In this document: positions 1 to 23,160 of the stretch, in pieces | How positions within the stretch are numbered: the first letter of the stretch is position 1 | How the letters are laid out: each line of letters begins with the position of its first letter | From: Neophaeotheca triangularis | Lineage: Eukaryota | Assembly: GCA_054600435.1 (NCBI GenBank) | Contig: BAAIJX010000074.1 | Location: forward strand, 1 to 64,000 | Length of the DNA stretch: 64,000 nt | Direction: 5' to 3' | Position numbers and translations under genes: made by a program | The notes under the pieces: model-generated | Database searches by the model: none | Seen by the model: the letters and a program-made list of their open reading frames with translations, nothing else | Told to the model about the DNA's origin: nothing

Positions 1-390
1 ATTAACATCGATAGGAGCAAGCTCCTTACCCTTATCGATGTCGGCGAAGTAACGGAACGCTAGCGTACCCTTATTAGACCTACTCTCCTCACTATTATTA
101 CCCTTAGCATACTTGCGTTTCGAGCCTATACCCTTAACGGCCGTAGCGCGCTTCGTACTAATACCCTCCGACTTTAAACCCTTCTTAGTAGACTTCGACT
201 CGTTAACTAGATCCTTTAACTCCTCCTCCGTGAAGCTACTAGCGGCGATCCGACGGTAGCCCTTAGTTATAAAGACTCCCTTAGCGATAATCGCCCTATC
301 TATAGTAAAGGTACCCTTACTATTAATAGCTATAGCGCTAATACTATAGTCGACTAGCGCCTTCGGACGCTTACTAATACGCGGAGGCAT
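1..390 (-). pseudogene. N-terminal 130 codons of an unknown Lys-rich ORF (MPPRISKRPKALVD...), probably the antisense accessory ORF of a + strand family-A Gypsy copy; runs off the window edge
   Basis: ATG at 390 and no stop through position 1 by manual translation. Lies ~700 bp upstream of a PPT+LTR on the + strand. Confidence 0.55.
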
Positions 391-1106
391 AATAGAACGG
401 CGGTAGAGCAATAAAGGCAGTGAATAAAGTTAGCGAAAAAGGGCGATAGCGAAGATCGCGAAAAAAGTAGTCGATAAAGAAGGGAAGAAGGTGTTAGAGG
501 TACGAGGAGCGCCTTTTTGTTAAACCGCGCTAGGTAAGGTTTTCGAAAGGTTACTAGAAGCAGGTAATAATAGGAAACTAGGTGAGGTTAGCTTTATTGT
601 CGAAGAATAATAGGAACCGTATACGGACTAACGGTAGCGCGTATATAAAGAACTAAAGTTCACTTACCGACAAAGAAGGTCACCTTGTTAAAAGGTAGAC
701 CGGTACGCCGAAGGGACTACGACGGAGTAGAGGCTATTATTATTGTTATAGTTAAAAGGAGGAAGTCTTCGAAAGAGAAGCGGCCGGCAGGTTATCTCCG
801 CGTAATCATAGCGTAATCACGCTAAGGCTCTACTAGTAGTCACCGCTCTACTAGATTACCGCCACGTGGCCGTTAATACCGCTTATCGCGACGATAACGC
901 ACCTCGCCGTAGCGAACTCAGGTTTAGGGTAAATTCACTCTAGGGACCCGACGGTACGACGGCGGTACGCGGTATCACTCTTTTCCTTAGTAAAGACACG
1001 GCCGAGGTTTTTAACGAGGATGCTAATATACGCGCTATAACGGGGTTTCGCATAACTATGCTTATAAGTGCTAGCTCGAGGACGAGCTACTAGAGAGGGA
1101 GGTAAT

Positions 1107-1329
1107 TGTCACGACCGCGGCGCTAGCGGGACATTAGCGGCCTAAGCTACGGAGTAGCTCGGGAGTACTAAGCATATACACTACAAAAGTATATAAGATA
1201 GCTAATAGTGAAGTCTCCTATCTGCTATCGAATAGTTTCTATATTAAAGGACTATTACTATTGTTACTATTATTACGCTCCGCCCTCGCTACGCCGTAAT
1301 CCCGACCGAGTCCTAGTCTCGGTCTTATA
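1107..1329 (+). repeat. 3' LTR (223 bp) of a + strand family-A Gypsy copy, preceded by a polypurine tract
   Basis: tgtcacgacc...ggtcttata (TG...CA end after RIP). Reverse complement of 19347-19569 and the same length. PPT gagagggaggtaat lies immediately 5'. Confidence 0.9.
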
Positions 1330-1332
1330 AAG

Positions 1333-1530
1333 ATGCGCTATAGGGACGACGCCGCTCCGTCGGCGGGAGAGAATGCGGAGAAGTCTATTAGTGCCGAGGA
1401 TTAGCTATAGGCTAATATTGCTAATGTTGCGAAGGAGTTAGACACTAGGGCTTAAGCGTTTATCTGATTATTTACATACTCTCTATAAGCGCTATTGTCC
1501 CGTCGCTAGCCCGTCCGTAGTAGCTATTAA
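1333..1530 (+). pseudogene. C-terminal fragment of an ORF antisense to element A pol
   Basis: MRYRDDAAPSAGENAEKSISAED*L*ANIANVAKELDTRA*AFI*LFTYSL*ALLSRR*PVRSSY*. Internal stops are reconstructable as Gln/Arg codons. Final TAA (1528-1530) abuts the apparent pol stop (1531-1533, minus strand). Confidence 0.5.
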
Positions 1531-3876
1531 TTAAGAAGCTTGTGTACTACGTCCTTTTCCTACAGTTTTCTTCTTTTTTCCTAGCTATATATTCTTAACA
1601 TTCTTCTTCTTCGGGCTTTATGTTTTCTTTCTACGCTTCTTTTTCGCGCTACCGTAGGTCCGCTAGTATTACTCGAAGTCTACTATCGCTTCTTTCGCGT
1701 TGTTTAGATACTTCTCTTTCTCCTAGGTACCCTCTTCTATCAGCTAATCTTTCTAAAGAACCTAGTACATCTTGTCGCTATCGTCGTCGAGACTAGATAC
1801 CGTTATTTCGTCGATAACCTATTCGCTACCTCTATCGACTTCTCGTTCCGCTAGCGGTATAAAGTCGGCGCGTTAGTAGTACGGTTCGAGGAGAGAGACA
1901 TAGAAGACATTATAGATCTTTCTAAGGTATAGAGGTAGGGCTAATTAGTATACTTGTTTTCCGACCCTTACTATAACTCGAAAGGGCCCTACATAACGCG
2001 AGGAGTACTTTTTAGTTAGTCTTAATGTTTTCAGGTTTTTCGCGGAAATAAGAACCTCGTCGTCGACACTAAATACTATAGGATCGTGTTTTCGGTCGTA
2101 GTATTCCGCCTACTTGCTAACTGCGTGCTAAATGTTCTCCTTAACGACTTCGCGAATTACTTTCTAGTTTTCGGTTCTTTCTTAGAGGTCGGGGATTGTC
2201 GGTTCGCTACCTCCCTCTCTAACGGCGTTATCTATAACGCCGCCGGGCTATTAGGGCTCCGCCCCGTAGATAGTAAAGAACAGCGACACTTTCGTCGATA
2301 CGCTTATACTATTATTATAGGCGAATTTAGCCTATACGAAGTAATAAGGCCAATCTGTTTAAGCAAAGTTAACAAAACATCGTAGATACTGTTCCATTAT
2401 TTAGTTTTGCCTCTCCGTCTATCCGTTAGACTAAGGGTAGTACACTGTCGATAACTTGCGCTCGGTTTTCTAATACCGAAGGAGCTCTATCTAAAATGTA
2501 GAGGTGAATATACTGCCTCTATTAGTTACAATCGATTTCGGCTTACTAAACTTAGTAAGAATTTCGTGCTCGAAAATATCGGCTAGTTAGCGGGCCCCTA
2601 TCGCTTCGCTAATAGGGATATACCTCGCAAACTTTAAGAAGCGGTTAACAATAACTAATACAGAATCGACTGTTTTACCCTTATATGTCTCTACGATAGG
2701 CAACTTAACCACTATGTCTATAGACTAATGCTTAAAGATCTTATTAGTACCCGGAACCCTTAGCGATTATAATGCGCCGTAGGGCCGGTAGTAGCGCGAC
2801 TTGTGTCTTTAGTAGGTGTCACACCTAAGGACATACTCTTCGACATCCTTAGTCTACTTAGACTACTAAAACTCCTTGTGGAAAACGGCTTTAGTCTTCC
2901 CTACTCCCGGGTATCCTACTAATAGGTCCTCGTAGTAGTAGCTTAGCACGGCGGCCCGTAGGCTTTCTACTAGTAGTATATACACCTTTCTATTAATCTT
3001 AAGAAGTCCCGTAAAACTAACCGACTATATAGGCGCGGCGCCGTTAGCGTCTCCGTAGTACTATCCCTCGTCGATCTCTTTACGAATATGTTTAGCAAAG
3101 GGGTCTCCCTACTATATACGTAACATATCCGCTCTAAGGTCAATTCGGTCTACCGCTACGTTAGGCTCTCTAATGTCTAGCTCGGTAATAGTAAGAATAC
3201 CTAGCTACTTACCTATAGGGTTATAATAGATTAGCGCTACTATAGCGACGGAGCTAGTCGGGTTTAGTTCACCTCCCCCTTAGAGCGTTCGCTTAGTATA
3301 CATAGTATCATTACTCTAAAGCTTATTATTTAGAGGACCGGTGTCTCCGGCAGCCATTATATAGCCCGCCGGCGAGGCGGCTAATGCCCGGTAGTTTACT
3401 AGCGCTATATACCCTAGCGATATAGATAGGATCTCTACTCTATCTTCGGCAGCCGTCATGTAGCTACTCGCCGGAACTTCGGCGGCCTTATATTAGCCCG
3501 CTAGGGGAGCGAAAAGCCTAGTTAGTATAGGTAGCATTTCCGCCCTACTTAATTCCCTATTAGCCTCTATGTTAGGACGGCGCGAGAGCCCGTCTGCTCT
3601 AGGGTTTGATTTACCTTTACAGTATATAATCTCGATATCGTATTACGATAGCTCTTCCGCGGCGCGCGCTTAGCGGCCCGACAATTTCTTTGTCGATAGG
3701 AAGTACTTTAGATTGTTATGATCTATAAGCACCTAAACTTTACTCTTAGCCGACAATATATAGTGCCGCTACTAGCGCGTTGCCTCGACGATAGCGAGTA
3801 GTTCCTAATCATGTACTAGATATCGCAACTCTAGCCCTTTAAGCTTCTTAGAGTAATATACGACCGGATACTATAG
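1531..3876 (-). pseudogene. Element A pol, 3' part (RNase H C-terminus, integrase, GPF motif, chromodomain)
   Basis: YYSKKLKG...ELLAIVEA...DHNNLKYF...ADGLSRRP (RNase H), YSSRYVGPFRV (~1975-2010), and chromodomain E*VIDEI...MY*VL*KD*...T*EKEKYLNNAKEAIVDFE (~1670-1830). Confidence 0.9.
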
Positions 3877-4248
3877 TGTCGAGCGGCGAGAGCACTCGAG
3901 TAGCTAGGAGACTAGTTTTTACTTAGAGAGGTATTATTCATAACGGTTATAAACAATGTAGCGGGATTAGGAATTAGGTGTAGTCGAGAATCAGGGATTG
4001 TTCGTAATAGTTACGAACAATGCGTTAGGGGTTAGAAATTAGTTAGGTCGGTTATAGTACACGAAGGCTAATTCAAGTAGTCGCAATTCATTCTATGTCT
4101 ATCTGTCTAGGTAGGTAGGTAAGTAGGTAGGTGTCTAAGATATAAGTGCTAGTATAGGGGGAGGTATAGGTATGTAAAGGGGGTAATGACAAAGCAAATA
4201 CCGTAAAACTAGCCTACCTATAAATGTAGTACGGGAGTCACTACGACA
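3877..4248 (-). repeat. Element B 3' LTR (372 bp)
   Basis: Direct repeat of 16129-16500 with an adjacent PPT; contains (taggt/aggt)n and two 27-bp palindromes. Confidence 0.96.
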
Positions 4249-4269
4249 TCCCTCCCTAGCTAGAAAGTC

Positions 4270-7200
4270 TTACCACTCTATAGCAGCTACGCTACCCTAA
4301 ACCACTATTAAGTTCTCCTTATCCTACATTTCCTCCGTAAGCTCCTCCTATCCTACCGGTATAGCTCCCCTCTTTCCTTTATCCTATAGCGGTAGAGCGG
4401 AGCTAGAACTTTCCGAACGGTAGAACGACTTGTTCTAAAACACCCTTTTCTCTTCGTCTCGCTAATATGTCTAGGCGAGCTCGTACGCCTTAATAGCATT
4501 ATCCCGGATTTCCTAAATGTACTTCCGGATATAACGCGGGCTCTCTATAGTAATAGTATGTAGTACTTACTAGACGTCGGGGCTCGTGTACCGCAATTCG
4601 CCGATAGCTACTCTAGACAAGGCATCCTATACTACTAGATGTAGGGTCGCGGGAAATGGTACACGAGGAGCTCTATACTTAGTAGTGTAACCGGAGGCAC
4701 TTAACGGGCTAGGCACGAAGTCGCGGTATGTAGTAGTAATGTCGCTCCACTTTCTACTAGCGGCATTCTAAAGGTACTTATGGTCTCGGTCGATTCCTAC
4801 GAACTAGGGTAGGACAGTTATACGTTAGCGAACGGCTTTTGACGTAGTAGTGCTATAGGGTAGGCATAGGTTAGAAACGCAAACTCCGAAGGCCTTATAA
4901 GGGACTAGCTACTATTTCAAACCCTAGGCTAAGAGCTAAGCTTTCGGTAGGTTTATGTCGTCGATAGCCATAATCTCTTTTTTATAGTCTAGGTTATTAG
5001 TAACGAGGAAGTCCGTCCACTCCTTTAGGCGTTAGTACATCCCCTTAACCACTATAGTATAGTCGTCCTTAAACTTATTAAGGATGCTAACGCTGCCCTA
5101 AATAGTGTACATACCGGTACCGTTATTCTATATAAACACCGGGTTCAAATCGATATGCCTAAATCTAGTAGAGTCCCTAGGGTACTAGTTCTTAGTGTAA
5201 TATGGGTAGGACACTAGCTAAAGCAAGCCGTTATCGCGTAAGAGAGCATATAGTAGGATTAGTACCGGGCTCTAGCGAAGGTACTATTGAATCAGGCTAT
5301 AGTACATGTTCCTATACTAGCCCCGGTTAGACATGTTGTTTTGTAGGTAGGCGTCGTACATACTAAACTCGCTTTTAATCAGGTCCTTAACCTCTAGTAG
5401 CTTAGGGAATAAATCCGGAATGTTAATAGTACCGTTCCTTTCCTATTCTTTACGCTAGGCGACCGTGATGCCGAGTCCTTCCGCAATCCTCGCTTTCTAG
5501 TTATTGTCGAGGTAGTATATCACGCCGGACTTAACCGGTTTATACGCGAAAGTCTCTAGGTCATTAACGTCGGCCGAGATCCCTAGTAGGCGTTAGACTT
5601 CGGTGTTTAGAAACCAGCGGATACTACTACGAACGACGTTTTTCTAGGATTGCTTTAGGAGTTTCGCGATGTAGAAGATGTAGTCGTTAGTCGTCTTCGC
5701 ATCTTTCCCTTAGATAACTAGCCTAAGACTCTACGCTACTAGTCTCCGGTAGGTCGCGCACATACTATAGTAGTAGGTACTATAGCTAGTACATAACTCT
5801 ATGCGATCCCTATCTTCTATAGTAATGCGGAAACTAGTTCGCTAGTCGTTATCGGCTCTAAGCATGACCCGTAACTATAGTAGGGCTATCTTGTCTACCT
5901 CATAAGTGTATCGGCCGCCGCGTAGACTACCGTATACGGCATTGCTAGCAAACTAGGCCTCTATGACTACTTAGATCTCCTCTAGCTTCGGAGAGGGTAA
6001 CTCGCTAAGCCGGGGTCCTCGTACTACTTACGTTAGGGCCGTACCCGGGGGCGTAGCTAACATGCCCGGGGACGGAGCTAACGTTCCTACACTAGCAGAC
6101 CGGGTATAAGTGCGAGTACGAAGGGCTAAGGTAGTAGACATAGGCGTAGGCAAGGGCTACATTAGCTAGTAATACCCCTAGAGCTAGCGACGAAGCTCCT
6201 CCGACGTAGACACTAGAGATACTACATCCTCCTTAATTATAGGCATTAGTAGCATACTAGTGTTTCGAGATCGCGGCTGTCCTATAGGGCTCGGGGAGAC
6301 GGTGCTAACGAAGCGCCCTTCTCGTCATAGGGTCTCTAGGGCTTTAGGTGTCGTTAGGGCTATAGGACGGGTAAGGAAAGAGAGCTAGCCATCCTGTCCT
6401 CGGTATAGGACGCGATCATTCGGGCGCATCTTTTTGTATTTTTCGATTAGTTCCCCTACTATGTCCTATAGCTCGTCGGTAGTCTACTTAGTCGCAAACT
6501 TAGATATCTAGTCTATACCTACCGCGTAATTAAAGTCGGCCTTAGTGTAGAAGAACGTATAGAGTGGTTTCCCTTTCCTACTAGTCGGTTAACCTATAGG
6601 AGTTTCCTTGACAAGCCTACGCATAAGCTAGATACTAGCGGTAGCACGTAGCTTCCGGAACGTCTACTTAGATGTCTAGGCATATTTAGCGAGGTCGACA
6701 AATCCCTAGGACACATTCTCTAGAGCTATAAAGATACGGTCAATAGTTTCTAAAGCGACGGCTTTAGCAGCATTAACTAGCCCGTATAAAGAGAGGAAGT
6801 TCTCCTTTCGAGTAATACGCGGGTCGCGACGGCTACAGGTAGCTATGTCTTTAACCTTCCTAAACTTAGCTCTTTTTAGGGCCTACATAGGGTCGCTTCG
6901 CGCGTAGTTATCTACTATGTATACTAACATGTCCTAGTCTTCGCCGGCTTTATATACTATCTTAAGTATAGCGAGCTACGTAGCGTCTCGGGCGCGTAGG
7001 TCGGTTATAGCAGTTATCTTTTACAGTATCTCCTTCATAGTGTTTTTAAGCCGTATACTAGAAAAGCTTAAGGTGTATCGCTACGTGTCGAGTATAGGAG
7101 CTCCCTAGTCGTTAGTTGCTCCCTAGTTTTAGTAGACGCTCGTATCGGTAGACCTCGCTATTATAGTGGTGTCGGGCGTAGGCGCGGTTATAGTTATAGG

Positions 7201-7353
7201 CGCAGCCGAGGCAGTAGTAGGGCATGTAGTAGCCTAGCTACTACGAGTAAGGCGAGGGCTTTTAGGAGCTACTAGTTTATTCGAACTACCTAATCCGGAG
7301 CCGGCTTAGGAACTCGCCCGTAGGTGCTTCGGAGTAGACTCCTTAGGTACTAT
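4270..7353 (-). pseudogene. Element B ORF3: ~1027-aa protein with a C-terminal PhyH-like Fe(II)/2-oxoglutarate dioxygenase domain
   Basis: RIPed start (ATA at 7353), His codon at 5157 and TAA at 4272-4270 share one frame. Motifs: LVSYPYYTK..GDSTRFRHIDLNP..I*GSVSIL(D)..DDYTIVVKGMY..LP(Y<-H)(S<-G)..R*RITVLP*FVG, i.e. HxD...H...R. Confidence 0.8.
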
Positions 7354-7832
7354 GGTTAGTAATCTTAATCTTAACTATAGAAAAGAGAGAAAGAGAGAGA
7401 TGTGAAAGTAAGGAGAAGAAGGAAAGTAGAGTTAGTTACTCGGTATGTTACTAAGATGTGTCGGTGTCGGTATTAGTGTTAAAGTGAAAAGGTGTCGGCA
7501 AAGTCGTAGGTTTAGGAGAATGTGAAGTAAGGAAGTAGGTATAGGCACTAAAGGACGGAGGTGTCGGAGTAGTAGGTACTAGAGATATCGACTAGGTTAA
7601 AGAGGTCGTAAAGGTCGGAGGGAGTAGCTGCTTTAAGGCTTATCTAGAAGTAAAGCTGAACTACTCGAAGGTTCTCGTAGTAGTGCTAATAACAGCTAGT
7701 TAGCCGGGTGTAGTATAGTTAGTGTTAATGATGTCTCGGTGTGAGAAAGAGAAGAAGGAGTAGTAGTAGTAGTAGTGGTTGCTATTAGAGAGGGAGGAGA
7801 GGTAGAGGGAGTAGAGCGGAAGAGGAGGCCTC

Positions 7833-7839
7833 TTTTATA
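7833..7839 (-). promoter_or_regulatory. Candidate TATA box (TATAAAA) of ORF3
   Basis: Followed on the minus strand by pyrimidine-rich tracts typical of fungal 5' leaders; ~480 bp upstream of the ORF3 start. Confidence 0.5.
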
Positions 7840-7970
7840 GGTAGCTATGTTAGCTAGCGGAGCACGTGTCGACTACGTGTTACTAACTTAAGCACTAGTG
7901 ATACGAGTAGTGACTATACGTTGTTAGCCGACATGTAGCATGTAACACTAAAGTGTTATAGAGGTAAAGG

Positions 7971-8217
7971 CATTGTTTACAACGGTTGCGAACAATGTAA
8001 CGAGCTTAGCGTGTATTACTAAGGCGTCATAAGGTAACGGGTGACATTGTTTATAACGGATATGAACAATATAATATAGCTACGGCAAATAACACTACAC
8101 TATTAGGTAATAGGAGGCATTATTTATAACAGTTATGAACAATGCGACGAGCCTCGTCTATACTACTAGGAGTCGCGGTGTCGGGCCTAGCATTATTCAT
8201 AACAGTTACGAACAATG
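7971..8217. repeat. Array of four 27-bp palindromes (consensus CATTGTTCRYAAC-N-GTTRYGAACAATG) with 46-47-bp spacers
   Basis: Copies start at 7971, 8045, 8118 and 8191 (periods 74, 73, 73). Confidence 0.9.
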
Positions 8218-11200
8218 TAGTAACACTAATCTCTATTAGAATCTAGGTCCCTAAATTGCTCGTACTCTATCGGGTCGTACCGAATACTAGGAATCGAGAC
8301 GAAACCAGTACTACTCCGTCTCGGTACTAGCGTAGTATCGGTAGGTTATAACCGCTAGCTCCTACGAGGCCCTTCCTATACAGCCGGGACGATATCCTTA
8401 GGGTTAGACGCGTTACCCCTAGACATCGAGTACTACTCTTCCGCTAGGTCTACGTCGTCTTCGTCTTATATCGCGAGTACATTAGGCCTTAGATAGAACA
8501 GTTTTAATAGTCGACTAGCATGTAGCTTATCTAGTACTGTCCCGTTAAGCTCCTTAAGACGGTACGAGTCTATATTCTCCTAGACGGTTTTAATACGATA
8601 CGGACCGAGCTAGCGAGGGGCGAATTTGCGGTTTGCCGTTATATTAGTATTACGAACCGAGTCGAATAGTAACACTAGATCACCGACATTTAACTCCTCT
8701 AGCCTCGTCTAATGAGTCTTATCGAAGTACTCCTTGTTAAACTCGCGGTAGCGCTATAAGCGTAGAAGGGCTTCGTCTATCTTCTTATCCTAACGTTCGA
8801 GCTACTTTATCCGCGCTACTAGTAGGTCTTCCGTCGTTTAAACGCCGTTCTAGTTAATGTTGTGCTAGGTCGGGAATAACAACTCTACCGGTAGGATAGG
8901 CTCCCTACTATAGATTACTACTACTAGAGTTATACTAGTAGTAGCTCGTACGGTAGTCCTATTAGCCTAGAGCGCGCTATAGAGTAGGTCTGGCCACGGT
9001 CGTCCGGTATCTCGACTCGCTTTAGCTAACGTATTAACGATAGTCGGGTAGCCTCCTTCTACTATACTATTAGCTTAGGGGTAATACGGCGAGATCGTGA
9101 TGTCTTAGATACCGTATCCTTCGAGTAGGACGGTAGTCTACCCTTAGTTCTCTAGGCCTCTATCGTGGACTAGTTTCCCGAATACTCCGTGTCGAGTAAC
9201 GATATCCTCGTAAAGGAAGCGAGCTAGCCCGCGGCTCTCGGTGTTACGTAGTGGTCGGCCTTCTACCTAGCCGGACACGTCTTCCCGGGTAAGGGTAATG
9301 TACTAGAAAGTACGGGATTCCGGCATTCGTACTAGGTCGACGGCCTACTTCCTACCTACTACGTTTATGTAGGTAGGGTGTAGTGGTTCTTCTAATTGGT
9401 TCCGTGCGCGTAGCTAACACTCCCGGCAGGTTTTGACATACGCTGTAACAGTATTATATATACCTTCCTACTAGTACCTGTCTACTACTTTCCGGTATGT
9501 CCCTTCTCTTCCGTAGTAACTACCCTTATCGTGAAGTTCCTTTATTATTCGTAGTCGGTTCTACTCTCCGTCTACTACGCGAGTTAATAGCTAGTTCCTA
9601 TTTATATAGCGAAATAGTTAGTCGTTATAGACTAGGAATCGCATTGCTTGTCGCTTAAATGCCCGGAACTCCGATTTAGATAGGTCTACGGGCCTTCGTA
9701 TAGTCGTGAGCTAGCGGGCGACATTTTACGAGTGCTTAGAGTAGGTAGAGTCGAGCACATTATCGTCGGCAGGTTCCCCCTCCCTATTAGAAGGAGTCGA
9801 AGCTCCGTCTTCGCCGCTCGCGGGCGTTAGGCCCTATACTAGGAGTAACCCTACTATATAGGTAGATCTTCGATTCTCGCCGACTATAGGCGTTAGGCCT
9901 AGTGTCGGGGGCAGCCCTAACGCTAAGGTCGGCGGTCTCTTTCTACTAATAGTAGGCGTTAGGCCTAGTTCTAGGGGTAGCCCTAACGAAATGCTGTCGA
10001 GATAGACGTTAACCTAGTTATCGATGTCTTTAGTATTAGCCGGCCCATTAGACTTCCGGGACAGGCCGTTAGCGATAACGTTTTTCGTACTAGCGACGTG
10101 TCGCACGTCGAAATCAAATAGTTAAATCTAAGCTAGCTAGCGAGTTACTATAGTATTCGGTACGTCCGAGGCAACCTTATTAAGCTAGGCAACTAGCGTA
10201 TTAGCGTCTGTTTCGACTATAAACCTCGCTCCGTAAAGGTATAGCCGTAACCTTTTAAGAGCGATCATTAAAGCCTAGTACTCGAGCTTAACAGCATCGT
10301 ATTTCTGCTCGCTCTTATTCTAGAGACCGCTATCGTACCGGATAACTCGTCTTTTTACGCTAGCGACTTCTTATTATAAGTAAAGTCCCTAGCCGGTACT
10401 ACATATATCGACCATAAGAACTAGTTAGCCTATGTTTACGCCGTATTTAACTAGGGCCACGATCGGGAATTTCATTAGCTACTCTTTTAGGTCCGCTATT
10501 ACCGCGGCTTATTTCGGTCCCTAGATAAAGGGCATATCTTTCCATATAAGTGTAATAATAGGTCTCGCACGCTATATAAATCCCTAGATCAACTACTTAT
10601 AGTACGTACACATTCTAATAAAGCCACGAGCTTTACGCAATGTGCGACACTTAGTCTACTCGGCGATAGCTTTAACCTTTAAACGCGATAGTTTCGTACT
10701 ATTAGGCATGTACATAAAGCCGACAACCTTAAGCTCCTCGGAAAGGAAGTGCGATTTCCCTATAGCGACAGTACATCTAGCTCGCTCTATGTCTACGAGC
10801 AGCTAGTCTAGTTTCCGGATATAGTTATAGACCGGGAGCCGGATACCGGGTAAAGGGTTAGGGTCGCCCTAGGAGTCACTACGGTTACTAATAGCGATAA
10901 TGTCGTCAACGTACGGGACGGCGTTATGTAGATATAGCACCATGAGTATCTACATTATGACTCGACAAAAGATAGCTACTAAGTTTGTCTAGCCTATTAG
11001 TAGTATTGTCTGCCTTAGGAGCCCTAATAGAGTCATGATAGCCGTCATGTCCCGGCTTTCTTCGTGTAAACGGATTTCGTCATACCTAGAGAAGACGTTA
11101 TATAGCGAGAGGAGCGGTCTACCCGTAACATGATAGACGAAGCTCGCGAGGTCTAGTAGCATTATAGCGTCTCGAACTATAACCGAATTCAGAATAGTAG

Positions 11201-11893
11201 CCGAGTTAATTAGCCTATGTTTGCTATTCTTCTTTTTAACTAGAAACTAAGGATTCCGGTATTGCCCTTAGCTATACTTAAGGACACTAGCTTTTAGTCG
11301 GTCTTCTAACATCTCGACGAGCTCCCTAGATAAAGCTTTTAGCACGGGATATGTCTTGGCCTACTAGGCTTTATAGGGTACCGTTCTTATCTTAACCGGA
11401 GGGCATATGTCTTTATAGATCATGCCATACTCCTTAAAGTCCTACATAAGGGCCGGCTTACGGGCTATTAATATCGCTTCGAATAGCTAACGTTCTTCTA
11501 GTAAGAGCGTGATGTTAACTATTACTCCCGCTATTCGTTCTAGGGTTAATCTATAGCCCCTTAGCTCCCGTGTATATCGCGGTTCGAAGTAGCTATTATA
11601 CTCGGAGTAAGCGATAAGATCTTTTAGCATGCTTTTAATCTAGCGCTCTATAGCTTTCTTTCGCTAATCTAACTGTCTACTAGGAATCTTAGAGGGGATA
11701 GCACTTAAGTCGTCGATAGGCACTACCTTATCTACCTTCCGTTTAGCTATAGTCATAACACCGCAATTCTCCTTTAGCGGTAAGGTAGGGTTAGAGGCGA
11801 GCGCTATAAGTTCTAAAGGTTTTACACTCTACGAGAGCTTTATACTATCTACTATTATGCTTAACCTCTATACGTAGGAGACCCTACCTAGGG

Positions 11894-12070
11894 CATTGTT
11901 CGTAGCGGTTACGAATAATGCTCGGGTACTAGTCGAGGAGTTAGCGGAGCGTCCGGGTATTACGTGACTAGAGGGATTATTCGTAGTAGTTGCGAACAAT
12001 ACTCGGGTCATCGTAGTGTTATCGGTCGCTTCGTGAAAGGCAGGATTGTTCGTAGTAGTTATGAACAATG
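11894..12070. repeat. Three in-frame copies of the same 27-bp palindrome between protease and RT
   Basis: Starts at 11894, 11975 and 12044 (periods 81 and 69, both multiples of 3). Read as LFxTxTNN repeats in ORF 11868..12068. Confidence 0.88.
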
Positions 12071-12709
12071 ATTTGCTTAGTTCTTAGTAGGTATCGGCGG
12101 TAGTAATCGAACCTACTTGTCCGCCCTACCTTTTAACGAATGAATAGAGGACGCGCTCCGATCTACACGTACCGTATACATACCGACACCATTAAGGGAG
12201 AAATGGTCTCTAGCCTTAGAATCTAAGCCCACTAGTCGACGAATCCCTATACTAGGAATAAAGTCTATAGTCGCCGAGCTATCCTCGCTAGTGACCTGGC
12301 AGGTAACTTTGCCTAACGGATTCCTCCGAACTTCGAGGGAAGCGCGATAGGCATATAGCTCTCCGAGGATATAGGGTTTCGATAACTACTCTACTACTAG
12401 TATTAGTATGCGAATGACGACCTAGCCGACCTAAACGGGCGCGTTAGGAACCTACCTAATAAAGATGACTACATCTCCGTTTACTACTGTAATACCCGGA
12501 CTAATAGAAGATGGCAACCTCGTAATTAGTAGTCGAGCGCGTTTAGCCACGTCTCTTATCATGACATTAATATCCGTGCTAGAGTCGAGGAGTATAGTTA
12601 CGTTAGTCTTCCCGATCCTTATCTCGTAGACTAGGGAGTCGTTACGATAAACTAGGTCCTCTCCCATAAGATCGTCGACGTCACGGGCGGTTATATAGAA
12701 CAACGTAGT

Positions 12710-13409
12710 TATAAGAACTGTGCGTATCACGTGATGTCTAATCCTTATGCACTAACTAGTTCGCTACAAAGTGCAAAAGACTAGGAATATTTACCTCCGT
12801 AGTGAATATCGACATCATACCTATATAGGCTTGAGTCTTGGCGTCACGTGACGTCGTACGTGACCCACAAACTTAGTCGTGACAATTGCTTCCCTCTCCG
12901 TCGGACTCGTCCTCAAGTCTTACGACTTCATGACTCATGTCGGCCTTCCCCGTTACATATATATAGTCATACATGACTTATGCCGGATAAGATCCTAGCA
13001 CGTAATCATAGAGGTTGTCACACCTACATAGACCGCCCCTATCACTACACACGTGTGTCTACGTGATCACGAGCACGTGATCTACACATGAGGACTTCCG
13101 TCACGTGACGCATCACGTGACGTACTACCCTAAGTGATGTCGTACCTTAAAGTCACGACCCCGCACGAAACGTCAAGCAGCTTTCTACACGATTCGAACG
13201 GGCGACCTTTAGGCACCGGTAGAGGTGAATATATTGTGAGAACTATGCGTATCACGTGATGTCTAATCCTCGTGCACTAACCAGTTCGCCACAAAGTGTA
13301 AAAGACTAGGAATATTTACCTCCGTGGTGAATATCGACATCATACCTATATAGGCTTGAGTCTTGGCGTCACGTGACGTCGCACGTGACCTACAAACTCA
13401 GTCGTGACA
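12710..13409 (-). mobile_element. TRIM (miniature non-autonomous LTR element C): 175-bp LTRs and a 350-bp non-coding interior
   Basis: Direct repeats 12710-12884 and 13235-13409. 5-bp TSD gtagt (12705-12709 and 13410-13414). PPT ggagagggaagcaat on the minus strand next to the left LTR. Confidence 0.95.
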
Positions 13410-16128
13410 GTAGTGTTTAATGCGGTAGCATTCCGTCGACGCCTATCGACCGAATCATGAGCTGTAGTTATAGCGGGTAACACGGAAGCACCTCTAGCGG
13501 TAGACTTCTTCGTTTCGCGGGCAAGGTGCCGTTACGTAGCGGTCATGTCTATTTCTCGCTACACATCGTCAGCTAGCCCCTCGGGTAGCGGGCTAAATAG
13601 TAGCTTCTAGACACCTAGCATCTTTACTAAGACGTCTATATAGTTTATGGTAACATCGCTACTAAGGAGTATCTCTAGTATCGTAGCATTATCATACTGA
13701 TTTCGGATAAGGACATCGAGGAGCTTCGCACGTCTCGAGGCCTACTATTTTGTCGCTAGTAGCGCCGGCTGTTACTAATCTTCGTCATTAGTATCCCTTT
13801 CCTCGACTAGTCGATTAATTAGCGAGTCGTAGGGAATAGTCTAGCTTCTCTTATAAGCCGCGCTGTCTACTAGCTTCTCGTACTTACTAGGCCTCGTCAC
13901 GCGGACTTTAGGAGCAGCTCGCTTCTTATACACTCTCGCGTCCGGATCTTAAACCGGCCCTAGGCTAGATCGAGTCTGCATTAGATATAAAGAGACGTCG
14001 TCCTTGTCCTCGGAGGTGTTAGAACGGGATAATAGAGGGAGTGTAGTCATAAAGCGAACTATAGGACCCTATGCGGCGATAGGCACGAACCGGTTCTCGC
14101 CCCGTTTAATCTTCTACTTAATAGTATCGAGCCGGTTTTCCTACGGAAGCCTTTAGAGTTCCTCTCCCGGGTTTTAAACAGATCCCTATCAGATACGTTT
14201 ACTACTTAGGTTAGAGTGTACGAGTCCCTTATTAATAAGCTCGAGAAATCTAGGGCAAGTCATCTATCCGTGTAGGCCGCTATACATGAAGTAGCCTCCC
14301 GGCGCCGTTCCGTAGGTAGTATTAGGAGCGCCATAACCCTAACTAGGATACTACATGTAGTTATTAAAATTAGAGGTAGTAGCGGTAGGGGCGTAAGTAG
14401 ACCGTTCGGGAAAGGAAGGTTATAGAGCTACCTAGAAGACATTAGTCGTAGCGCTAGCTAGAATGTTAGACATAGTAAATCCGTAGTAGCCCGTATTCTT
14501 AACTATAATAGCTAGGTCTATAGCGTTTAACTTAAGCGTCTTGAACTTAGCTACTAGTTCGTCTATTTCCTTTTCGGAGGTAGGCTATTTAGGGAAGTTA
14601 GGTATAGGACGTCCCTAGCTCCTAAAAGCTAGCGCTAGGAATGCCGCGGTAGGGACTAGCATATATACGACAGGTTTCTCGCTAGCCTCTATATAGACTA
14701 TTACGTTATGAACCGAATTCAACATCTCTAAGGATTAGTCAGCACGGACCTTGTCCTCGACGGCCCTAAACAGTTATTAGTACTCGATAGACTCGCTAGG
14801 CATAAGTGGATTAATCTAGAACTGCCGGATAAGACGCTCCTATAAGTTCTAAGGCAAACTATAGAGGAAGTACTTTATAATCTCCGGTCCCCTAAGAGGG
14901 TACCCCTAATCTTTAGCCTTATAGATAATGCTCTCGAAACCGCGAACGTACTCTAGGATCCTATTCGGATAGCTAGCGGCTTTACTCTTAGCCATAAAAC
15001 CCGCGAGTGCTTCTATACTTCTAGTAAGTCGCTCCGAGTCAAAATCCCTAAACTTAACCTTTATGGCAGCGAAGACGCCCGCTAACGAGCCGTCGTGCTC
15101 AAGGTCCGACACCTAGGCCTAGACCTTATCGCTAACGTAGCTATCGAGTAGTTCGGCTACGCGACGGGAGTCGAACCTAAACCGCACGCATATCTTCTTA
15201 TACTTCTATATAAAGCTCGTAAGGTTACTACTATCGAAGTAGGCCGCTCTAGACTTGTAGGGGCTCGGGGGAGGCGCCGTAATCACGTACCCTAGGGTAT
15301 TAGTAGGACGCGACGGTAGGGACGCCCTAGGGCTGTCCCCGCTAGATCCTAGGGTAAGCGCGGGGGTAGATAGTGCCGAGGAAGTAGTAGGCCCTATATC
15401 CTATATGTCTTCTAGGGTAAGGGAAACGTCGAGAGGGGAGTTAGACATATTTTTGGTTATTTGTTCAGTTTTCTAGAAACAGTGATAATAGTAAGGCGGC
15501 GTAAATAAAACAGTAGAATCTTAGAACATATAAGTAATAGACCGAGTAAGGAAGCCGAGAATGTAAGCGATGTTCTTAGTAGTAAATTTACGAAGTTAAT
15601 CTTAAGCGGTGCCTCGTAGTCTTTCTTCGATCTATAGCCGAGTTGATATCTTTTCTCTACTAGAGGTCCTAAAGGTCCGGATTCTCTAGTAGTATGTAGA
15701 AGGTTTGCCTCTATTAAAATAAGACGAGCGTCGTCGTAGGGGACTCCGGCCTCTACATTTTTAAAGCTCTATTAAGTTTTCGGCGATAATACCGAACAGT
15801 CTAAAACCTTACGTAGCGTAGACAACCGCATCTAGGCTAAGTAGAACGGTAAGGGCGAGAAAAGCTAAAGTAGTAAGTAGTAGTCTAGACTATCTAGAAG
15901 CCGCTATCGTCGTTTCGTTAGGACAGGAGAATAGCGGGGTAGAGTAGTAGGTTTCTTAGGGTTAACTATAGCGCCGCTATCGCGTTATCGAGTCCCTTTT
16001 CTAGTTCCCTTATTAAAAGGGTAAGTTCTATAAGCTAGGTAGTCTTGTAGTAGGTATAATTCCTAGAGCGTAGGTTCGGCTATTAGGACGAAGACAATAT
16101 GCGATCGCCCTACCTTCGGCTCTAAATA

Positions 16129-16500
16129 TGTCGAGCGGCGAGAGCACTCGAGTAGCCGGGAGACTAGTTTTTGCTCGGAGAGGTATTGTTCATAACGGTT
16201 ATGAATAATGTAGCGGGATTAGGAATTAGGTGTAGTCGAGAATTAGGGATTGTTCGTAACGGTTACGAATAATACGTCGGGGGTTAGAAATTAGTTAGGT
16301 CGGTCATAGTACACGAAGGCCAATTCAAGCAGTCGTAATTCATTCCATGTCTATCTGTCTAGGTAGGTAGGTAGGTAGGTAGGTGTCTAAGATATAAGTA
16401 CTAGTGTAGGGGGAGGTATAGGTATGTGAAGGGGGTAATGATAAAGCAAATACTACAAAACTAGCCCGCCCATAAATGTAGCACGGGAGTCACCACGACA
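16129..16500 (-). repeat. Element B 5' LTR (372 bp)
   Basis: Direct repeat of 3877-4248, with palindromes at 16184 and 16248. Confidence 0.96.
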
Positions 16501-16504
16501 ATAG

Positions 16505-19297
16505 CGTGCCCGAGTACTTCTACGCGAGTATACCTCCTAATGCATATCCCGATATATTGGTCTTAAGGCAGGTCTCTAGCGTAGCGTTAAAGTGCCGTAG
16601 TACTAGTGCTGAAATGAAGCTGTACTTTAACCTTTTAAAGGATTTTTAGGCATCTTTACCTAGTAGCTACTATTCACCGCCGCTATACCGTAGGCGGTCT
16701 ATAAGGGGAGCGGTAATCTTTATATATCCCTTAATAAAGCGATGATAGAAATTCGCGAATCCTAGGAACACTTAGAGTTCTTTTAGGGACTTTAGTATTA
16801 GCTAATCTTGTACTACGGCTACCTATAGGGGCTCTATCGCTACTCTAGTAGAGTTAATAACGAAACCGAGGAATCCAATTTCTCGGACTATGAACTCGTA
16901 TTTCTCGAGACTAGTATATAGCTTAGCGTCGGCGAGCTAACGGCAGACCGCTCGAACGTGTTCGTGGTGTTCTACTTTAGTATAGGAATAGATAAGAACG
17001 TTATCTATGTATACTACGTAGTAGTAGTTAACGAGTTCTATGAGCACCTTATTAATAAAGGCCTAAAACGACGCTAGTACATTAGCGAGTCTAAAAGGCA
17101 TAACCTTATATTGAAAATGGCCGTACTAATAGTAGAACGCCGTCTTCTACTCGTCGCCCCGGGCAATACGTAAACGGTAGTATGTCTCGACTAAATCGAT
17201 TTTCGAAAAGCACATTAATCTACGGACTCTATCTAAGAGTTCACTAATAAGTAGTAAAGGATGCTTATTCTTAATAGTGATTTCGTTTAAGCCTTAGTAA
17301 TCGACGTACATTCGGAGTTTGCCGTTTTTCTTCTTAACGAACAGTAATGGTACGCTAGCGGGGCTAGTACTAGGCTCGATACGGTCTGTCGCGAGCAGGT
17401 TATTAATCTACGACTACATTTCCTCGAGCTCTAGCTCGGAACATAGGTAGATCAGTCTACTAGGAGGATTTTTCCCCTCGACTAGTTCGACATAGTAGTT
17501 ATAAAGCGTATACGGAGGTAACTCTTTCGCCTTCTCTAATTTAAACACCTCGGCGTATTCTGCTAACTACTCGGGCACCTATAGCTCCGCTAGGGCCCTA
17601 TATAAGTCTTCTACGCTAACGGCGAGGATAGATGCTCTACTGTTAATATCTCGGGCTAGTTCTTCGGCCTCGATAATTTCGACTTCTTCTTTATTATACA
17701 TGCCGCCGTAGCGCTACTATACTAGTAGCGACGCGAAATCAAGCTATACTTTCGCGGATCGGATCTAAGGCATTCTAAGAATCATTTCGTAATCCTTCTA
17801 GTTCACTACTTCGAACATTTACAGGATAGTCTAAACTATACTGTCTAAATTAGCGACTTTAGTATAGAGTCGGCATCGGCCTACTATTAGGGCTTCGATG
17901 TCGCTAAAGGCTCGTAGCCTACGAATCTAGTCACCCTTTATCGGCAGGTTATACTAGACCGCGATGTCTTCCGAGATGACATTGTAATACGCTCCTATAT
18001 CGATAAGCCTACGGGCCTCGAAGCGTAGCCCGTCGCGGGTACGATTGTATATCTTCGCGACAGCCTATAGGCGCTCTATTAATACACTGCCTACTTACTG
18101 CCCTAAGCCTTTAAGGCTAATAATTAAATGACCTAGGGCTAAGCTTTTCCCTTTCGGCAATGTTCTTACTAGTAGCCTTTATTGCTATACTTAAAACAAA
18201 GGTTTTCCTCGAGGGCTTTGTTATTTCGTTCGCTACCGTTAGTCGTACCTATATAGTTTACACCGGTCGCCGGTGTTCTATTAGTGCGCTAGTAGCGCGG
18301 TTTAGAGTTGTTATCGCTTATACTCTAGTTTTATTCTCTTTTCCTATAGCCGGAACCTCTTAAGTCGGTCTTATATAGCTTGTCTGCCGTCTCGCCTCTA
18401 GCGTCCTAGCTACTATAGCTCGCATCGTCGAGGCGCGTATAAAGCGCGACGAGGTCGTAGCGGTTATCCGGCACCGTTAGCTAGGCATTTAGCTTAGCCT
18501 TAAGATTCTCCCGTAAACCTGTCTTAACGAGGGTTAGGAGCGTATACTCCGGTAGCGGGGCGACGTTAGCCTCGCGGAGGGAGTCTTCGACATATAAGAG
18601 GTAGTCGTGAAATAGATTAGGTTAGTCCCTACACGTGTCGGAAACCTCGAAACGCCATGTTTATAGCGCGGTTTTCAGGGTCGAGGATCTAATCTAGTAG
18701 CTATTCTTTAAACATAGGCCATTTCATCTCTTCGCGTTCGAGTCGTAATTCTTTACTCTCCTAGTTCTAGCCGACGCGGCTATATAGGCGGCCTACGGCA
18801 TACTAGACACGCTCGTACTAATAAAAGTAAACATAAGGGTACGTCTTAAACACACGCTCGCATTACTAGATAAACGTCTATGCTTTTAGGAGATTAGGAT
18901 AACTCCTATAAACCGTTAGTTCGGCCGAGCGAAAAGCTTTCTTAATATCGATATAAGACTTTCGCTCCTTTATCGTTACGCTAGTAGGTAGATCTTCGTC
19001 TACTGTCTACTTACGTGCTACTAGGGTAGGGGCAATGTCCGCTAGCTCCTCCGGTTCGATATGTCCTCTTTCGGACTCGTCGTATAGGACCGTCGCTCTA
19101 TTAGCGGCTCGCTAAATAGGCGCTATACGCTCTACTAATTACTATCGGAGTTCCGTAATAGCGGTAGTAAGGACCGTGTATTAGTCCGTCGCTACCTCTT
19201 CTTATTCTTATAGGGTATTAACTCCGGTCATAGTGTTAGGGGAGTCCGCTAGGTTAGCGTCGTTAACCCGAGGGCGTAGCGAGCGCGATAGTACTAT
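16505..19297 (-). pseudogene. Element A gag-pol, 5' part (gag, zinc knuckle, protease, RT, start of RNase H)
   Basis: RIPed ATG ~19297; ENLCFKYSNKGY*..HC knuckle ~18156-18210; LIDIGAYYNVISE (DTG-type protease) ~17970-18015; RT VVYIDNVLIYS ~16985-17017. Confidence 0.9.
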
Positions 19298-20717: not shown

Positions 20718-21213
20718 ACTATCCTGGATTTTCTGTTGTTATTATTGTTTGTATGACGAGTTACGGGTGATTAGCTCAAAACTAGGAAAGTTAAAGGTAG
20801 GAGTGACCGCGGGGCTGTTAGGATAGGAATCCGAGTCTTCGTAGGCTTATACGACCGTCATACATTAGGTAGATGTTTACTCCACGGCCCGAACAACACC
20901 TTACCGACGTTACCGTACCGGGCTATACCTATGTACATACAGTGCCTACACGCACTTTACCTACAGCACCTACCTTACCTTACAGTATGAGTCTGGCATG
21001 GACACCCACCGACGTCTAGCTTGCAGTACAAGCCTCTCCTTTGATCAAATCTTGCAGAGGTGTCATTTACGAACTGAGCAATTAACAAGCTCTACGTAGG
21101 GCCCGATAACTTTCTTTATCACTCAACTTCCATTGGATCCAGATAGTTTCCTTCATTATCCTCGCCCTCGCCATTCGTAGTGGACAAAGCTTCAAAATCA
21201 CTCCGAAACGGCC

Positions 21214-23160
21214 ATGGACCGACTGCCTGAAGAAGTAGTGCTCCAGATCATCACATGTAGGTATCGATTACGCCTAAGCATCAGGCCTTTCTTTTCTCTG
21301 ACGATATCTTCAGATCTCAATCACCTCGATGTTGTACGTTTACAAGGTGTCTCTTCACGCTATCTTTTCCTAGGCCGCGACAATGTCTACTGGAAACTTG
21401 AAGCTTTCGATCATTCCCGCGCAGAAGCGCTTAGGAGGCGGCAGCAATTACTCGATAGGCAAGGCTCCTCTTTGGCTGAGATCCGAAATGCTATATCTGC
21501 ACTACCTGGCTCGGACCTGACGGCTTTCGACGTTGCTCAAATACGCGGATCCTCTCAAGGTCGGGCCTCATCCGATCCCCATTCCGAAGCACGCGATCAG
21601 AGGAACAGAGCTTTGGCGAACTGGGAGCCTGGCTACCCTGGCGAACAACTTGACTATTATGAAGAGTACATTCAACGCCATGCCCCGATCAATGTCGGTT
21701 GGTTGGATGTGCCCAACGGAGAGACGGCGGAACGTGAGGTGTTGCGTGAAATTACGGGAGTTGGCGCCTTGCACTCGTCTTACTTCGACACTGTCGAACA
21801 TGTCGTTGCACCACTCGATGATGGCAGTATTTCAATTTGGGATCTCGCTCCTCGCACCACTTCAGCTATTGGCGGCGCAGGCAAACCGCTTCATCAGACC
21901 GCACCTGGCTTCCTGACAGGCCTTGGCCCAGACGACACGGCTAAGAGTCATGCTATCATGACCGAGACTGGCGCCGTCGAGTGCGTGAGTGTTGACAGCT
22001 CGGCAAAGAGAGGGTACTTCGCGGTGAACAATATGCTCCACGAAGTCGACCTACAGACAATGCAACGCGTTGGGGTCAAACAATACCCCTTTCCCATCAC
22101 AGCTCTGTCCGAGGCCCGCGATAAGGTTCCCATCACAGTTGGCACTAACATGACAATACACTTGCATGATCCACGAGATGATGCCTTCACGACCAAAGGG
22201 GAACACAGCAACGGGGAACTCATCGGTGGCTCTCCTCACTCACACGCCACTCTATCGCAGCCAGGGCCACTGTCGATCCTCCACCACGCTGGGCTGGATA
22301 CCACTGGCGCCTCAATTTGGATCGCAGGCCGCTTCACAAGCCTCTTAAACTACGATCGACGCTTGTTCCCACGACTTCGAGGCACAGTCCACAGTGGTGC
22401 CCGCGTCGCATGCCTCTCAGCCCTACCATACCCGCACTTGCCTCGTGACCTCGACTTGATGCGTAACCCCTCAGCCTCAATGCTAGACCACCAAAACGCC
22501 AAGACTTCCAGTGGCACGACCATCCTCGCTGCGGCAGAGTACAAAGGCAAAGGCTCGCTAGAACTGTACGGCCTTCCACACTCGACATCCTATCAAAACC
22601 GCCAAACCGCGTCCGCCTCCAAACTGCTTTCGGTAACGCCTCATGGCGGCCGCATAGTCTTCAGCGACGGCGACGGAAACCTTAAGTGGGTGGAGCGCGA
22701 TGGTTTCTCCCACGTCCGTAGCTACAACATCAACGAAGCCATCGGAGCATCCTCTGAAAATCCCGCTGCACACGATACCCGCGCTTCAGGCATCTGGTCA
22801 TCCACGAACGGCGGGACACCGGGCCACGGCGACATTGTCCAGAAGATCATCCCCACACTTTCATCCTCGCAAATCTCGTCATCGCGCTCCGAGCGTGCGG
22901 ACGTCGCGCAGTCGAACCTATTACTCTGGACGGGCGATGGCCGCCTCGGAGTGTTGGGTTTCGGACACCGGGACCCGCTTAGCAGCGCCAAGGCCGTGGA
23001 GGAGTGGCACGATGCCGTGGAGTCTCAGCATGTCATGGGCACTGCTGAGGCTAGGTCGAGAGAGGATGCCGAGAGGCAGTATGCGATGAGGATGCGGCGG
23101 GCGTTAGAGAGGAACGCGGACGAGGTGCGTTTTGTCCGGGGCTTGGGGATGGGGATCTAG
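21214..23160 (+). CDS. F-box protein with probable WD40-like beta-propeller
   Basis: MDRLPEEVVLQIITYLNHLDVVRLQGVSSRY...YWK F-box after removing an in-frame 57-nt intron (21257-21313, GT..AG); DGSISIWDL and DGDGNLKWVE repeats. Confidence 0.85.
   Translation: MDRLPEEVVLQIITCRYRLRLSIRPFFSLTISSDLNHLDVVRLQGVSSRYLFLGRDNVYWKLEAFDHSRAEALRRRQQLLDRQGSSLAEIRNAISALPGSDLTAFDVAQIRGSSQGRASSDPHSEARDQRNRALANWEPGYPGEQLDYYEEYIQRHAPINVGWLDVPNGETAEREVLREITGVGALHSSYFDTVEHVVAPLDDGSISIWDLAPRTTSAIGGAGKPLHQTAPGFLTGLGPDDTAKSHAIMTETGAVECVSVDSSAKRGYFAVNNMLHEVDLQTMQRVGVKQYPFPITALSEARDKVPITVGTNMTIHLHDPRDDAFTTKGEHSNGELIGGSPHSHATLSQPGPLSILHHAGLDTTGASIWIAGRFTSLLNYDRRLFPRLRGTVHSGARVACLSALPYPHLPRDLDLMRNPSASMLDHQNAKTSSGTTILAAAEYKGKGSLELYGLPHSTSYQNRQTASASKLLSVTPHGGRIVFSDGDGNLKWVERDGFSHVRSYNINEAIGASSENPAAHDTRASGIWSSTNGGTPGHGDIVQKIIPTLSSSQISSSRSERADVAQSNLLLWTGDGRLGVLGFGHRDPLSSAKAVEEWHDAVESQHVMGTAEARSREDAERQYAMRMRRALERNADEVRFVRGLGMGI

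Follow-up and report, generated by a model that had tools for sequence, protein, structure and literature searches.

Drosophila gypsy carries about 12 non-palindromic Su(Hw) sites, which form one cluster in the 5′ untranslated leader and are bound by a host zinc-finger protein. Intragenic enhancer sites occur in yeast Ty1, palindromic heat-shock elements and hormone response elements lie in the long terminal repeats (LTRs) of plant ONSEN and mouse mammary tumour virus (MMTV), respectively, and retroviruses possess pro-pol −1 frameshift stimulators and dimerisation-initiation hairpins. In Arabidopsis, VANC binds the motifs of its VANDAL DNA transposons and causes loss of methylation (PMC5735166). 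TET/JBP dioxygenases on fungal DNA transposons are thought to counter silencing, and, according to the cited part of a recent survey, none is known from a retrotransposon (PMC12730594). Here, we describe element B, a 12.6-kb Ty3/Gypsy LTR retrotransposon on the minus strand of a 64,000-nucleotide stretch of Neophaeotheca triangularis DNA (contig BAAIJX010000074.1, positions 1 to 64,000; hereafter, the window). A single long palindrome occurs in this element at 11 places, in both LTRs, in the hinge between protease and reverse transcriptase (RT), and between pol and a third gene, ORF3; we tentatively read these copies as sites for a DNA-binding protein.

Element B belongs to none of the Su(Hw)-, VANC-, Ty1-, TET/JBP- or AlkB-type families with which it was compared. 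Like gypsy, it is a Ty3/Gypsy element with repeated sites for one (here putative) DNA-binding protein, separated by unrelated spacers and located outside the canonical promoter; unlike gypsy, it bears its sites as perfect dyads, two to four at a time, and at locations of three kinds, one of them a translated hinge. Ty1, ONSEN and MMTV also place factor sites in LTRs and even in coding sequence, and their dyads are bound by dimers, as we propose for element B, but their motifs are short and host-wide, whereas the dyad of element B measures 25–27 bp, occurs 11 times and is found only in the element within the window. As in the retroviral signals, a hairpin-capable sequence stands at a −1 protease-RT junction and the palindrome is capable of RNA-RNA pairing; in contrast to those signals, no slippery heptamer was found, the motif recurs where there is no frameshift, and no copy lies between the primer-binding site and gag. 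The cited account of VANDAL and VANC likewise describes short element-specific motif arrays, mainly non-coding, in a transposon with an accessory protein (PMC5735166), whereas element B has a predicted PhyH-like ORF3, one array in coding sequence and a long perfect palindrome. As far as the cited parts of these papers go, the predicted extra Fe(II)/2-oxoglutarate (Fe/2OG) dioxygenase gene is a feature shared with the fungal TET/JBP transposons (PMC12730594) and with orchid Ty3/Gypsy elements, whose additional dioxygenase ORF encodes an AlkB N6-methyladenosine (m6A) demethylase (PMC9289625), although ORF3 is placed in the PhyH-like branch, unlike either. No account of a fungal Gypsy element that bears either a PhyH-like ORF or palindrome arrays of this kind was found in the full-text literature, a search that left subscription literature and Repbase uncovered.

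The palindrome was searched for in the whole window with a pattern, ATTRTTYRYARYRRTTRYRAAYAAT, that allows C/T and G/A changes at variable columns. This search returned 11 places at up to two mismatches and the same 11 at up to three (Table 1), equivalent to 22 matches, since every place is counted on both strands; dinucleotide-preserving shuffles gave means of 0.00 and 0.01 matches at the two thresholds. The 25-mer cores start at 3933 and 3997; 7972, 8046, 8119 and 8192; 11895, 11976 and 12045; and 16185 and 16249. An earlier note on the window, made from the sequence alone, had listed 11 copies and quoted one 27-mer as its example. That 27-mer matches exactly once (7971–7997), and the transition-tolerant search recovered precisely the 11 copies listed. 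The note had also seen no copy outside element B, and this held for the full 64 kb with none expected by chance: no copy of the palindrome was found outside 3877–16500, including the transposon DNA at 1–3876 and 16501–~22000 that is degraded by repeat-induced point mutation (RIP), and the window-wide scan found no copy in the older Gypsy element that flanks element B. Moreover, a RIP-tolerant palindrome scan of the whole window listed 52 palindromes, among which the 11-copy motif was the sole multi-copy one.

After RIP correction, the copies converge on a single dyad that reads CATTGTTCGCAAC-C-GTTGCGAACAATG in the sense of the element. Compared over 27 columns, the 11 copies vary solely by C/T or G/A, apart from the outermost position and one T>A change. 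The motif had been described as a 13+1+13 palindrome; the dyad and its 1-nt centre were confirmed, but the firmly kept core is 12+1+12, and the outer pair is complementary in only some copies. The three hinge copies have a real variant in common, C for T two bases 3′ of the centre, and apart from this variant and the T>A change the 25-nt core is identical at all 11 places once RIP transitions are discounted. An alternative stem, differing in sequence yet still pairing, is present in none of the 11 copies, and the centre base has the same orientation in every one of them. A search for the 13-nt half-site with at most one mismatch gave 24 matches, of which 20 fall within the 11 palindromes and 4 are isolated; as 2.5 isolated matches are expected by chance, there are no solo half-sites beyond chance. 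The palindromes have not been spared by RIP, given that the LTR copies differ from each other at 7 of 54 nt within the palindromes, as compared with 26 of 318 nt in the remainder of the LTR.

In contrast to the palindromes, the DNA between them has diverged. The start-to-start spacing is 64 bp in each LTR, 69 and 81 bp in the hinge, and 73, 73 and 74 bp in the array after pol. Spacer pairs were compared in purine/pyrimidine coding, to which RIP changes are invisible, and 13 of the 15 pairs (the duplicate LTR spacer being excluded) resembled each other no more than shuffles did; the two related pairs, both in the post-pol array, had z values of 4.3 and 2.8. Tandem Repeats Finder did not call the palindrome arrays. 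Together, the unrelated spacers and the missing call indicate that the copies are not remnants of a recent duplication of whole units, and ordinary tandem repeats were ruled out on the latter ground. When the 11 units were aligned with MAFFT, conservation was limited to the palindrome and a CC just after it, which agrees with the earlier observation that the palindrome is kept and the spacers are not. The immediate flanks do not match each other either, with 5′ sides ending in CG, TA, AT or AG and 3′ sides beginning with CC, CT or TC.

Eight of the 11 copies are non-coding, located in the LTRs, each of which holds two as noted earlier, or after pol; the remaining three are in the translated hinge. 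The hinge array is contained in a 380-nt stretch that extends from the end of protease homology to the start of pol homology, and a profile built from the N-termini of relatives' pol proteins showed homology only from ~11771 downstream and none over the array. The RT frame crosses the three copies without a stop over ~73 codons. In addition, the corrected palindrome is open in all three frames, and the stops of the protease frame within the copies are of RIP type (CAA>TAA). Both hinge spacings are divisible by 3, whereas the LTR and post-pol spacings are not, so that the motif is fitted into the reading frame and not imposed by it. The earlier statement that three copies lie in frame inside pol is accurate with respect to the open RT frame and the spacings, but these copies occupy a non-conserved protease-RT hinge and no catalytic domain. 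The same applies in part to the four post-pol copies, which had been placed upstream of the ORF3 TATA: a TATA-like CTATAA does lie after the last copy, but the probable ATG of ORF3 is ~930 nt further on. The intervening region (7040–7970, minus strand) consists of ~930 nt of pyrimidine-rich, low-complexity sequence with a plus-strand GC skew of +0.19 and frames rich in Ser/Thr/Pro; a long leader, a region with an intron and a disordered extension of the N-terminus are all candidate identities for it.

The reading that we favour, as a tentative one held at somewhat less than even confidence, is that the palindromes act in cis, as double-stranded DNA, and are recognised by a symmetric dimer of some sequence-specific protein, being arranged in homotypic clusters as an LTR enhancer and two internal modules. 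Binding by a protein, action at the level of DNA and an effect on regulation are all things we infer. Each cluster would comprise two to four sites 64–81 bp apart. The LTR pair would form part of an LTR enhancer or upstream activating region, the four post-pol sites would act as an internal regulatory module for the downstream ORF3 unit, and the three hinge sites would constitute an intragenic module tolerated in a non-conserved translated linker. The occurrence of half-sites only as dyads with a fixed 1-nt centre is as expected of a homodimer site. Furthermore, the LTR is the usual seat of retroelement enhancers, so the placement of the LTR copies counts in favour of a regulatory role, as does the position of the hinge array in a stretch where protein homology is absent.

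With regard to the binder, a host factor is favoured over the ORF3 protein. Both ends of the palindrome read CATTGTT/AACAATG, which matches an SRY/SOX-type high-mobility group (HMG) box core; HMG-box proteins are a candidate binder class on this likeness, which is only a lead. In the cited parts of two papers, AACAAT is given as the SRY/SOX HMG-domain target and, for Penicillium chrysogenum, is proposed as a sequence that MAT1-2-1 might recognise (PMC10512297), and similar ACAATG boxes are described in the promoters of fission-yeast mating genes (PMC1693924).

Several points weigh against these dimer sites. The LTR copies could lie in R/U5 rather than in U3, as just 55 nt of the LTR remain past the second copy, and, for a fungal core promoter, the ~930 nt that separate the post-pol array from the probable ATG of ORF3 are a long distance. 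A symmetric site has no need of a centre base that faces the same way in all 11 copies, though only three of the arrays are independent. Conservation here means agreement among copies within one RIP-destroyed element, the sole copy of the family examined. Finally, all 11 copies are on the transcribed strand and each can fold, so that a role at the RNA level fits the same data.

The main rival explanation concerns RNA, and we regard it as unlikely but by no means negligible: the palindromes would act as hairpins or intermolecular duplexes in the genomic transcript, in packaging or dimerisation, in export, or as a stimulator of the −1 frame change at the hinge. Six tested palindrome segments fold stably despite RIP (z −2.4 to −4.8 versus shuffles), and their identical, self-complementary sequences would allow two RNAs to pair. 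The hinge array also lies at a −1 junction between protease (frame −1) and RT (frame −3), and the close pol relatives have RT, RNase H and integrase domains without a protease Pfam domain, suggesting that a separate pol frame is typical of the clade. However, no X XXY YYZ slippery heptamer was found in 12330–11740, a weak negative because RIP may have erased one, and a frameshift role fails to explain the eight LTR and post-pol copies. In retroviruses, the stretch from the primer-binding site to gag holds the packaging and dimerisation sites; element B has no copy there. No covariation was seen, the stem being the same everywhere, although selection on structure alone would permit different stems in arrays ~4 kb apart; the copies offer no compensatory changes, since they vary through RIP noise only. 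A perfect palindrome with a 1-nt centre would leave a strained 3-nt loop, and an RNA in which a self-complementary stretch of 25 nt recurs would be prone to template jumps and to attack by Dicer. In addition, Rfam covariance models run over 3800–16600 on both strands gave no match at E ≤ 1, which also counts against RNA hairpins. The earlier note had proposed sites for a dimeric protein or RNA hairpins, and we retain the two as a sensible pair of readings for a motif that is real, confined to the element and conserved relative to its spacers. Between them, the sequence-fixed core, the fixed 1-nt centre, the lack of solo half-sites, the clustering, and the placement in the LTRs and before ORF3 fit a double-stranded DNA site for a dimer better than an RNA selected for structure only.

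The copies might also be functionless by-products of mutation, generated by hairpin-promoted template switching or as a tiny foldback or miniature inverted-repeat transposable element (MITE)-like insertion, and look conserved merely through youth. Linkers of element B do accumulate such repeats, as a second hairpin-containing tandem array (9823–9988) demonstrates, and the two related post-pol spacer pairs point to some local duplication. Nevertheless, there are no target-site duplications at the palindrome flanks and no copies beyond element B, even though the window holds other transposon DNA, and with 13 of 15 spacer pairs unrelated, the exact core would have had to be copied to three distant places. 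A neutral origin is very improbable in our judgement. A foldback or MITE-like unit in particular was ruled out by the mismatched flanks together with the lack of copies outside 3877–16500.

ORF3 is a genuine gene located between pol and the 3′ LTR on the same strand as the rest of the element. An exhaustive phmmer search with its stop-masked translation found 433 representatives at E ≤ 1e-3, 41 of them at ≤ 1e-30 (relatives, ~430, are counted as clusters at 50% identity), whereas a word-based search for homologues of the damaged ORF3 gave no match. Conservation is confined to some 340 residues at the C-terminus, and a profile of 55 full-length relatives matched the window at 5811–4375 with an E value of 1.5e-88. 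The named relatives are from Ascomycota (Venustampulla, Coccidioides, Rhinocladiella, Onygenales and several lichen fungi) and are all annotated as "hypothetical"; one record bears the label Sphagnum. Scanned directly with Pfam, the RIP-damaged ORF3, the gag-protease frame and six frames of the whole element returned nothing for ORF3, but the PhyH domain was matched in 20 of 35 short and 18 of 55 full-length relatives. An AlphaFold2 model of the domain had a predicted local distance difference test (pLDDT) score of 92, and its top Foldseek matches were Fe/2OG dioxygenases at template modelling (TM) scores of 0.4–0.6, namely DUF1479/Gig2/YbiU, TlxI, EvdMO1, OkaE, SnoN, GriE, proline hydroxylases, EctD and human PhyH, so that the closest solved folds are small-molecule and amino-acid hydroxylases. 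A sequence-profile search of the PDB gave no significant match (best E 0.25), and a protein atlas search gave only sub-threshold PhyH leads (score 0.87). By its predicted domain and its modelled double-stranded beta-helix fold, ORF3 is assigned to the PhyH-like Fe/2OG dioxygenases. Its relatives have an invariant iron triad (H540, D542 and H640); in the window, HxD is kept (FRHIDLN, 5163–5143) and the distal His has become Y by a RIP-type change. The cysteines and histidine of a CxC...CxxH arrangement, a possible zinc site, are invariant or nearly so in the relatives, and have changed to YTY (within 5913–5896) and CTSY (within 5796–5782) in the window, again by RIP-type changes.

According to the earlier note, ORF3 and the palindromes might form a sequence-targeted anti-silencing system analogous to VANC and its target repeats. 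In such a system, the palindromes would be the targets of ORF3, which would be recruited in cis and, as a dioxygenase, remove or block a silencing mark; we consider this improbable. It is consistent with the conservation of ORF3 as a gene on the element strand, with the CxC...CxxH arrangement and an N-terminal helical domain in its relatives, with the position of the largest palindrome array between pol and ORF3, and with the precedents for element-borne dioxygenases, limited to what the cited parts describe, in fungal TET/JBP transposons (PMC12730594) and the orchid Gypsy AlkB demethylase (PMC9289625). However, neither Pfam, which matched only PhyH among the 55 full-length relatives, nor Foldseek detected a DNA-binding domain in the family. 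In the full-length model of the relative P0004 (pLDDT 82.7), a disordered linker stands between a helical domain at the N-terminus and a compact body, and the Cys/His region packs on the dioxygenase body instead of forming a separate finger. TET/JBP, AlkB or JmjC likeness was found neither by Pfam nor among the Foldseek PDB matches listed, all of which are PhyH-like small-molecule or amino-acid dioxygenases. ORF3 and the 55 relatives gave no Pfam or fold sign of the VANC family and thus no similarity to it, though no direct comparison with VANC sequences was made. Nothing ties ORF3 to the motif, and the VANC-like proposal, though attractive, is not supported; the positive evidence for a link consists of their co-residence in one element. 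The more specific version, in which the dioxygenase would sit as a dimer on the 11 dyads and oxidatively remove or prevent a repressive mark on the chromatin or DNA of the element, seems highly improbable.

The pol relative P0171 and the ORF3 relative P0296 are each listed with 2 contigs, the longest of 11305 nt, from the sources lgn and ena; these listing statistics hint that the two are probably on one contig of about the size of the element and that Gypsy and ORF3 are linked elsewhere too, a point in favour of the anti-silencing reading. Contigs of 10–13 kb carry many of the pol and ORF3 relatives. One ORF3 relative, P0112 (1289 aa), has a C-terminal Ulp1-type peptidase C48 domain in addition to a PhyH-like domain. 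Ulp1-type peptidase C48 is a frequent fusion partner in transposon-borne proteins.

Should a protein indeed bind the dyads, one recognition sequence has been placed in the LTRs, in a polyprotein hinge and ahead of an accessory gene, and element B would offer a compact system in which to test whether genomic and sub-genomic expression are controlled together. Its clade is of interest in its own right, as an Ascomycota Gypsy lineage with a predicted PhyH-like dioxygenase as its third gene, whose ~430 relatives are unnamed or hypothetical. Identifying the substrate of the enzyme and the binder of the palindrome would reveal whether fungal retroelements own a counter-measure to silencing. Were ORF3 and the arrays one system after all, no sequence-targeted anti-silencing device would have been described earlier from an LTR retrotransposon, and this one would belong to fungi in which RIP and the ensuing methylation, their chief defence against transposons, eventually killed this copy of element B.

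Table 1. Coordinates of the palindromes and other features of element B in the window
Feature	Positions	Strand	Remarks
Palindrome, 5′ LTR a	16248..16274	.	
Palindrome, 5′ LTR b	16184..16210	.	
Palindrome, hinge a	12044..12070	.	
Palindrome, hinge b	11975..12001	.	
Palindrome, hinge c	11894..11920	.	
Palindrome, post-pol a	8191..8217	.	Starts 8 nt after the pol stop
Palindrome, post-pol b	8118..8144	.	
Palindrome, post-pol c	8045..8071	.	Bears the sole transversion
Palindrome, post-pol d	7971..7997	.	Example sequence of the earlier note
Palindrome, 3′ LTR a	3996..4022	.	
Palindrome, 3′ LTR b	3932..3958	.	
5′ LTR	16129..16500	-	372 bp, TGTCG...CGACA; palindromes at LTR positions 227–253 and 291–317, sense
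Gag-protease frame	12152..15448	-	Gag probably starts with Met at 15448; protease homology reaches to 12152
Protease-RT hinge	11771..12151	-	No homology to relatives; −1 frame change; holds the 3-copy array
Pol (RT-RNase H-integrase)	8226..11756	-	Conserved start MTIAKRK at 11756; stop 8228–8226
ORF3	4375..7038	-	Probable ATG at 7038; family-profile match 5811–4375; RIP-inactivated
Polypurine tract AGGGAGGGA	4249..4257	-	Abuts the 3′ LTR
3′ LTR	3877..4248	-	LTR-LTR match of 372 bp, ungapped, 91% identical
Target-site duplication ATAG	3873..3876	.	Partner at 16501–16504

The minus-strand pol domains, together with the polypurine tract at 4249, identify 16129–16500 as the 5′ LTR. It is followed by TATTTAGAGCC..., which lacks the TGG start of a tRNA primer-binding site, possibly through RIP damage. 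The gag-protease frame retains a RIP-damaged zinc knuckle (~14299–14267) and the protease DSG motif, now DSS (12595–12560), and pol retains YVDD (10916–10896) and the integrase H2C2 motif (~9533). Pfam matched RVT_1 (under the gathering score), RT_RNaseH, RT_RNaseH_2 and Integrase_H2C2 on the minus strand, and the order protease-RT-RNase H-integrase is present on one strand. The nearest pol relatives (P0151–P0199) show 33–47% identity, are ~1100–1300 aa long and have RT-RNase H-integrase without a protease Pfam domain. In a tblastn search with a fused, more distant relative, P0195, the protease aligned at 12643–12152 in frame −1 and RT from 11558 in frame −3; the two are thus in different frames, with RT codons starting 1 nt 5′ of protease codons. 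P0151 aligns down to 8217, and its C-terminal tail ...EFQYFSDDDD... matches ...YEQFRDLDSNRD immediately before the pol stop. A tblastn search of the window with element B proteins found no second copy of the family; the only non-self match was that of pol to the neighbouring Gypsy RT (17350–16700, 21% identity).

Other repeats were also found in element B. The second hairpin-containing tandem array, unrelated to the palindrome, is located in the minus-strand linker between RNase H and integrase of pol. It has three copies with a 66-bp period (22 codons), 11-nt inverted arms (GCGTTAGGCCT/AGCCCTAACGC) and loops of 10–12 nt; here, unlike in the palindrome arrays, the whole unit is repeated (68–86% identity). 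At this site, element B exceeds the relative P0153 by ~58 residues. In the gag-protease region, a 176-bp direct repeat (12709–12884 and 13234–13409; 93% identical, 525 bp apart) duplicates a stretch of reading frame between the zinc knuckle and the protease, and a single, unrepeated, near-perfect 12+12 palindrome (13099–13122; CGTCACGTGACG/CATCACGTGACG) contains two CACGTG cores. Both LTRs contain a (TAGG)6 microsatellite (4108–4132 and 16360–16384), and a similar run occurs in the genic region at 33447–33477.

The left third of the window is RIP-mutated throughout. In element B, TpA/ApT is 2.05 and (CpA+TpG)/(ApC+GpT) is 0.39, as compared with 0.75 and 1.16 in the genic part of the window, and the 33 differences between the LTRs are all transitions. 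Only one open frame longer than 100 codons (103 aa, 15457–15768) is left within the element. The older, distantly related Gypsy element holds element B within its RNase H region, with ATAG flanking the insertion; on the minus strand, this older element comprises RT (17350–16700) and an RNase H fragment (16657–16510), and its pol continues at 3864–3574. A 659-codon open frame without a Pfam match (21181–23160) spans the boundary at ~21000–23000, where RIP-degraded DNA of 43–47% GC shifts sharply to genic DNA of 51–57% GC.

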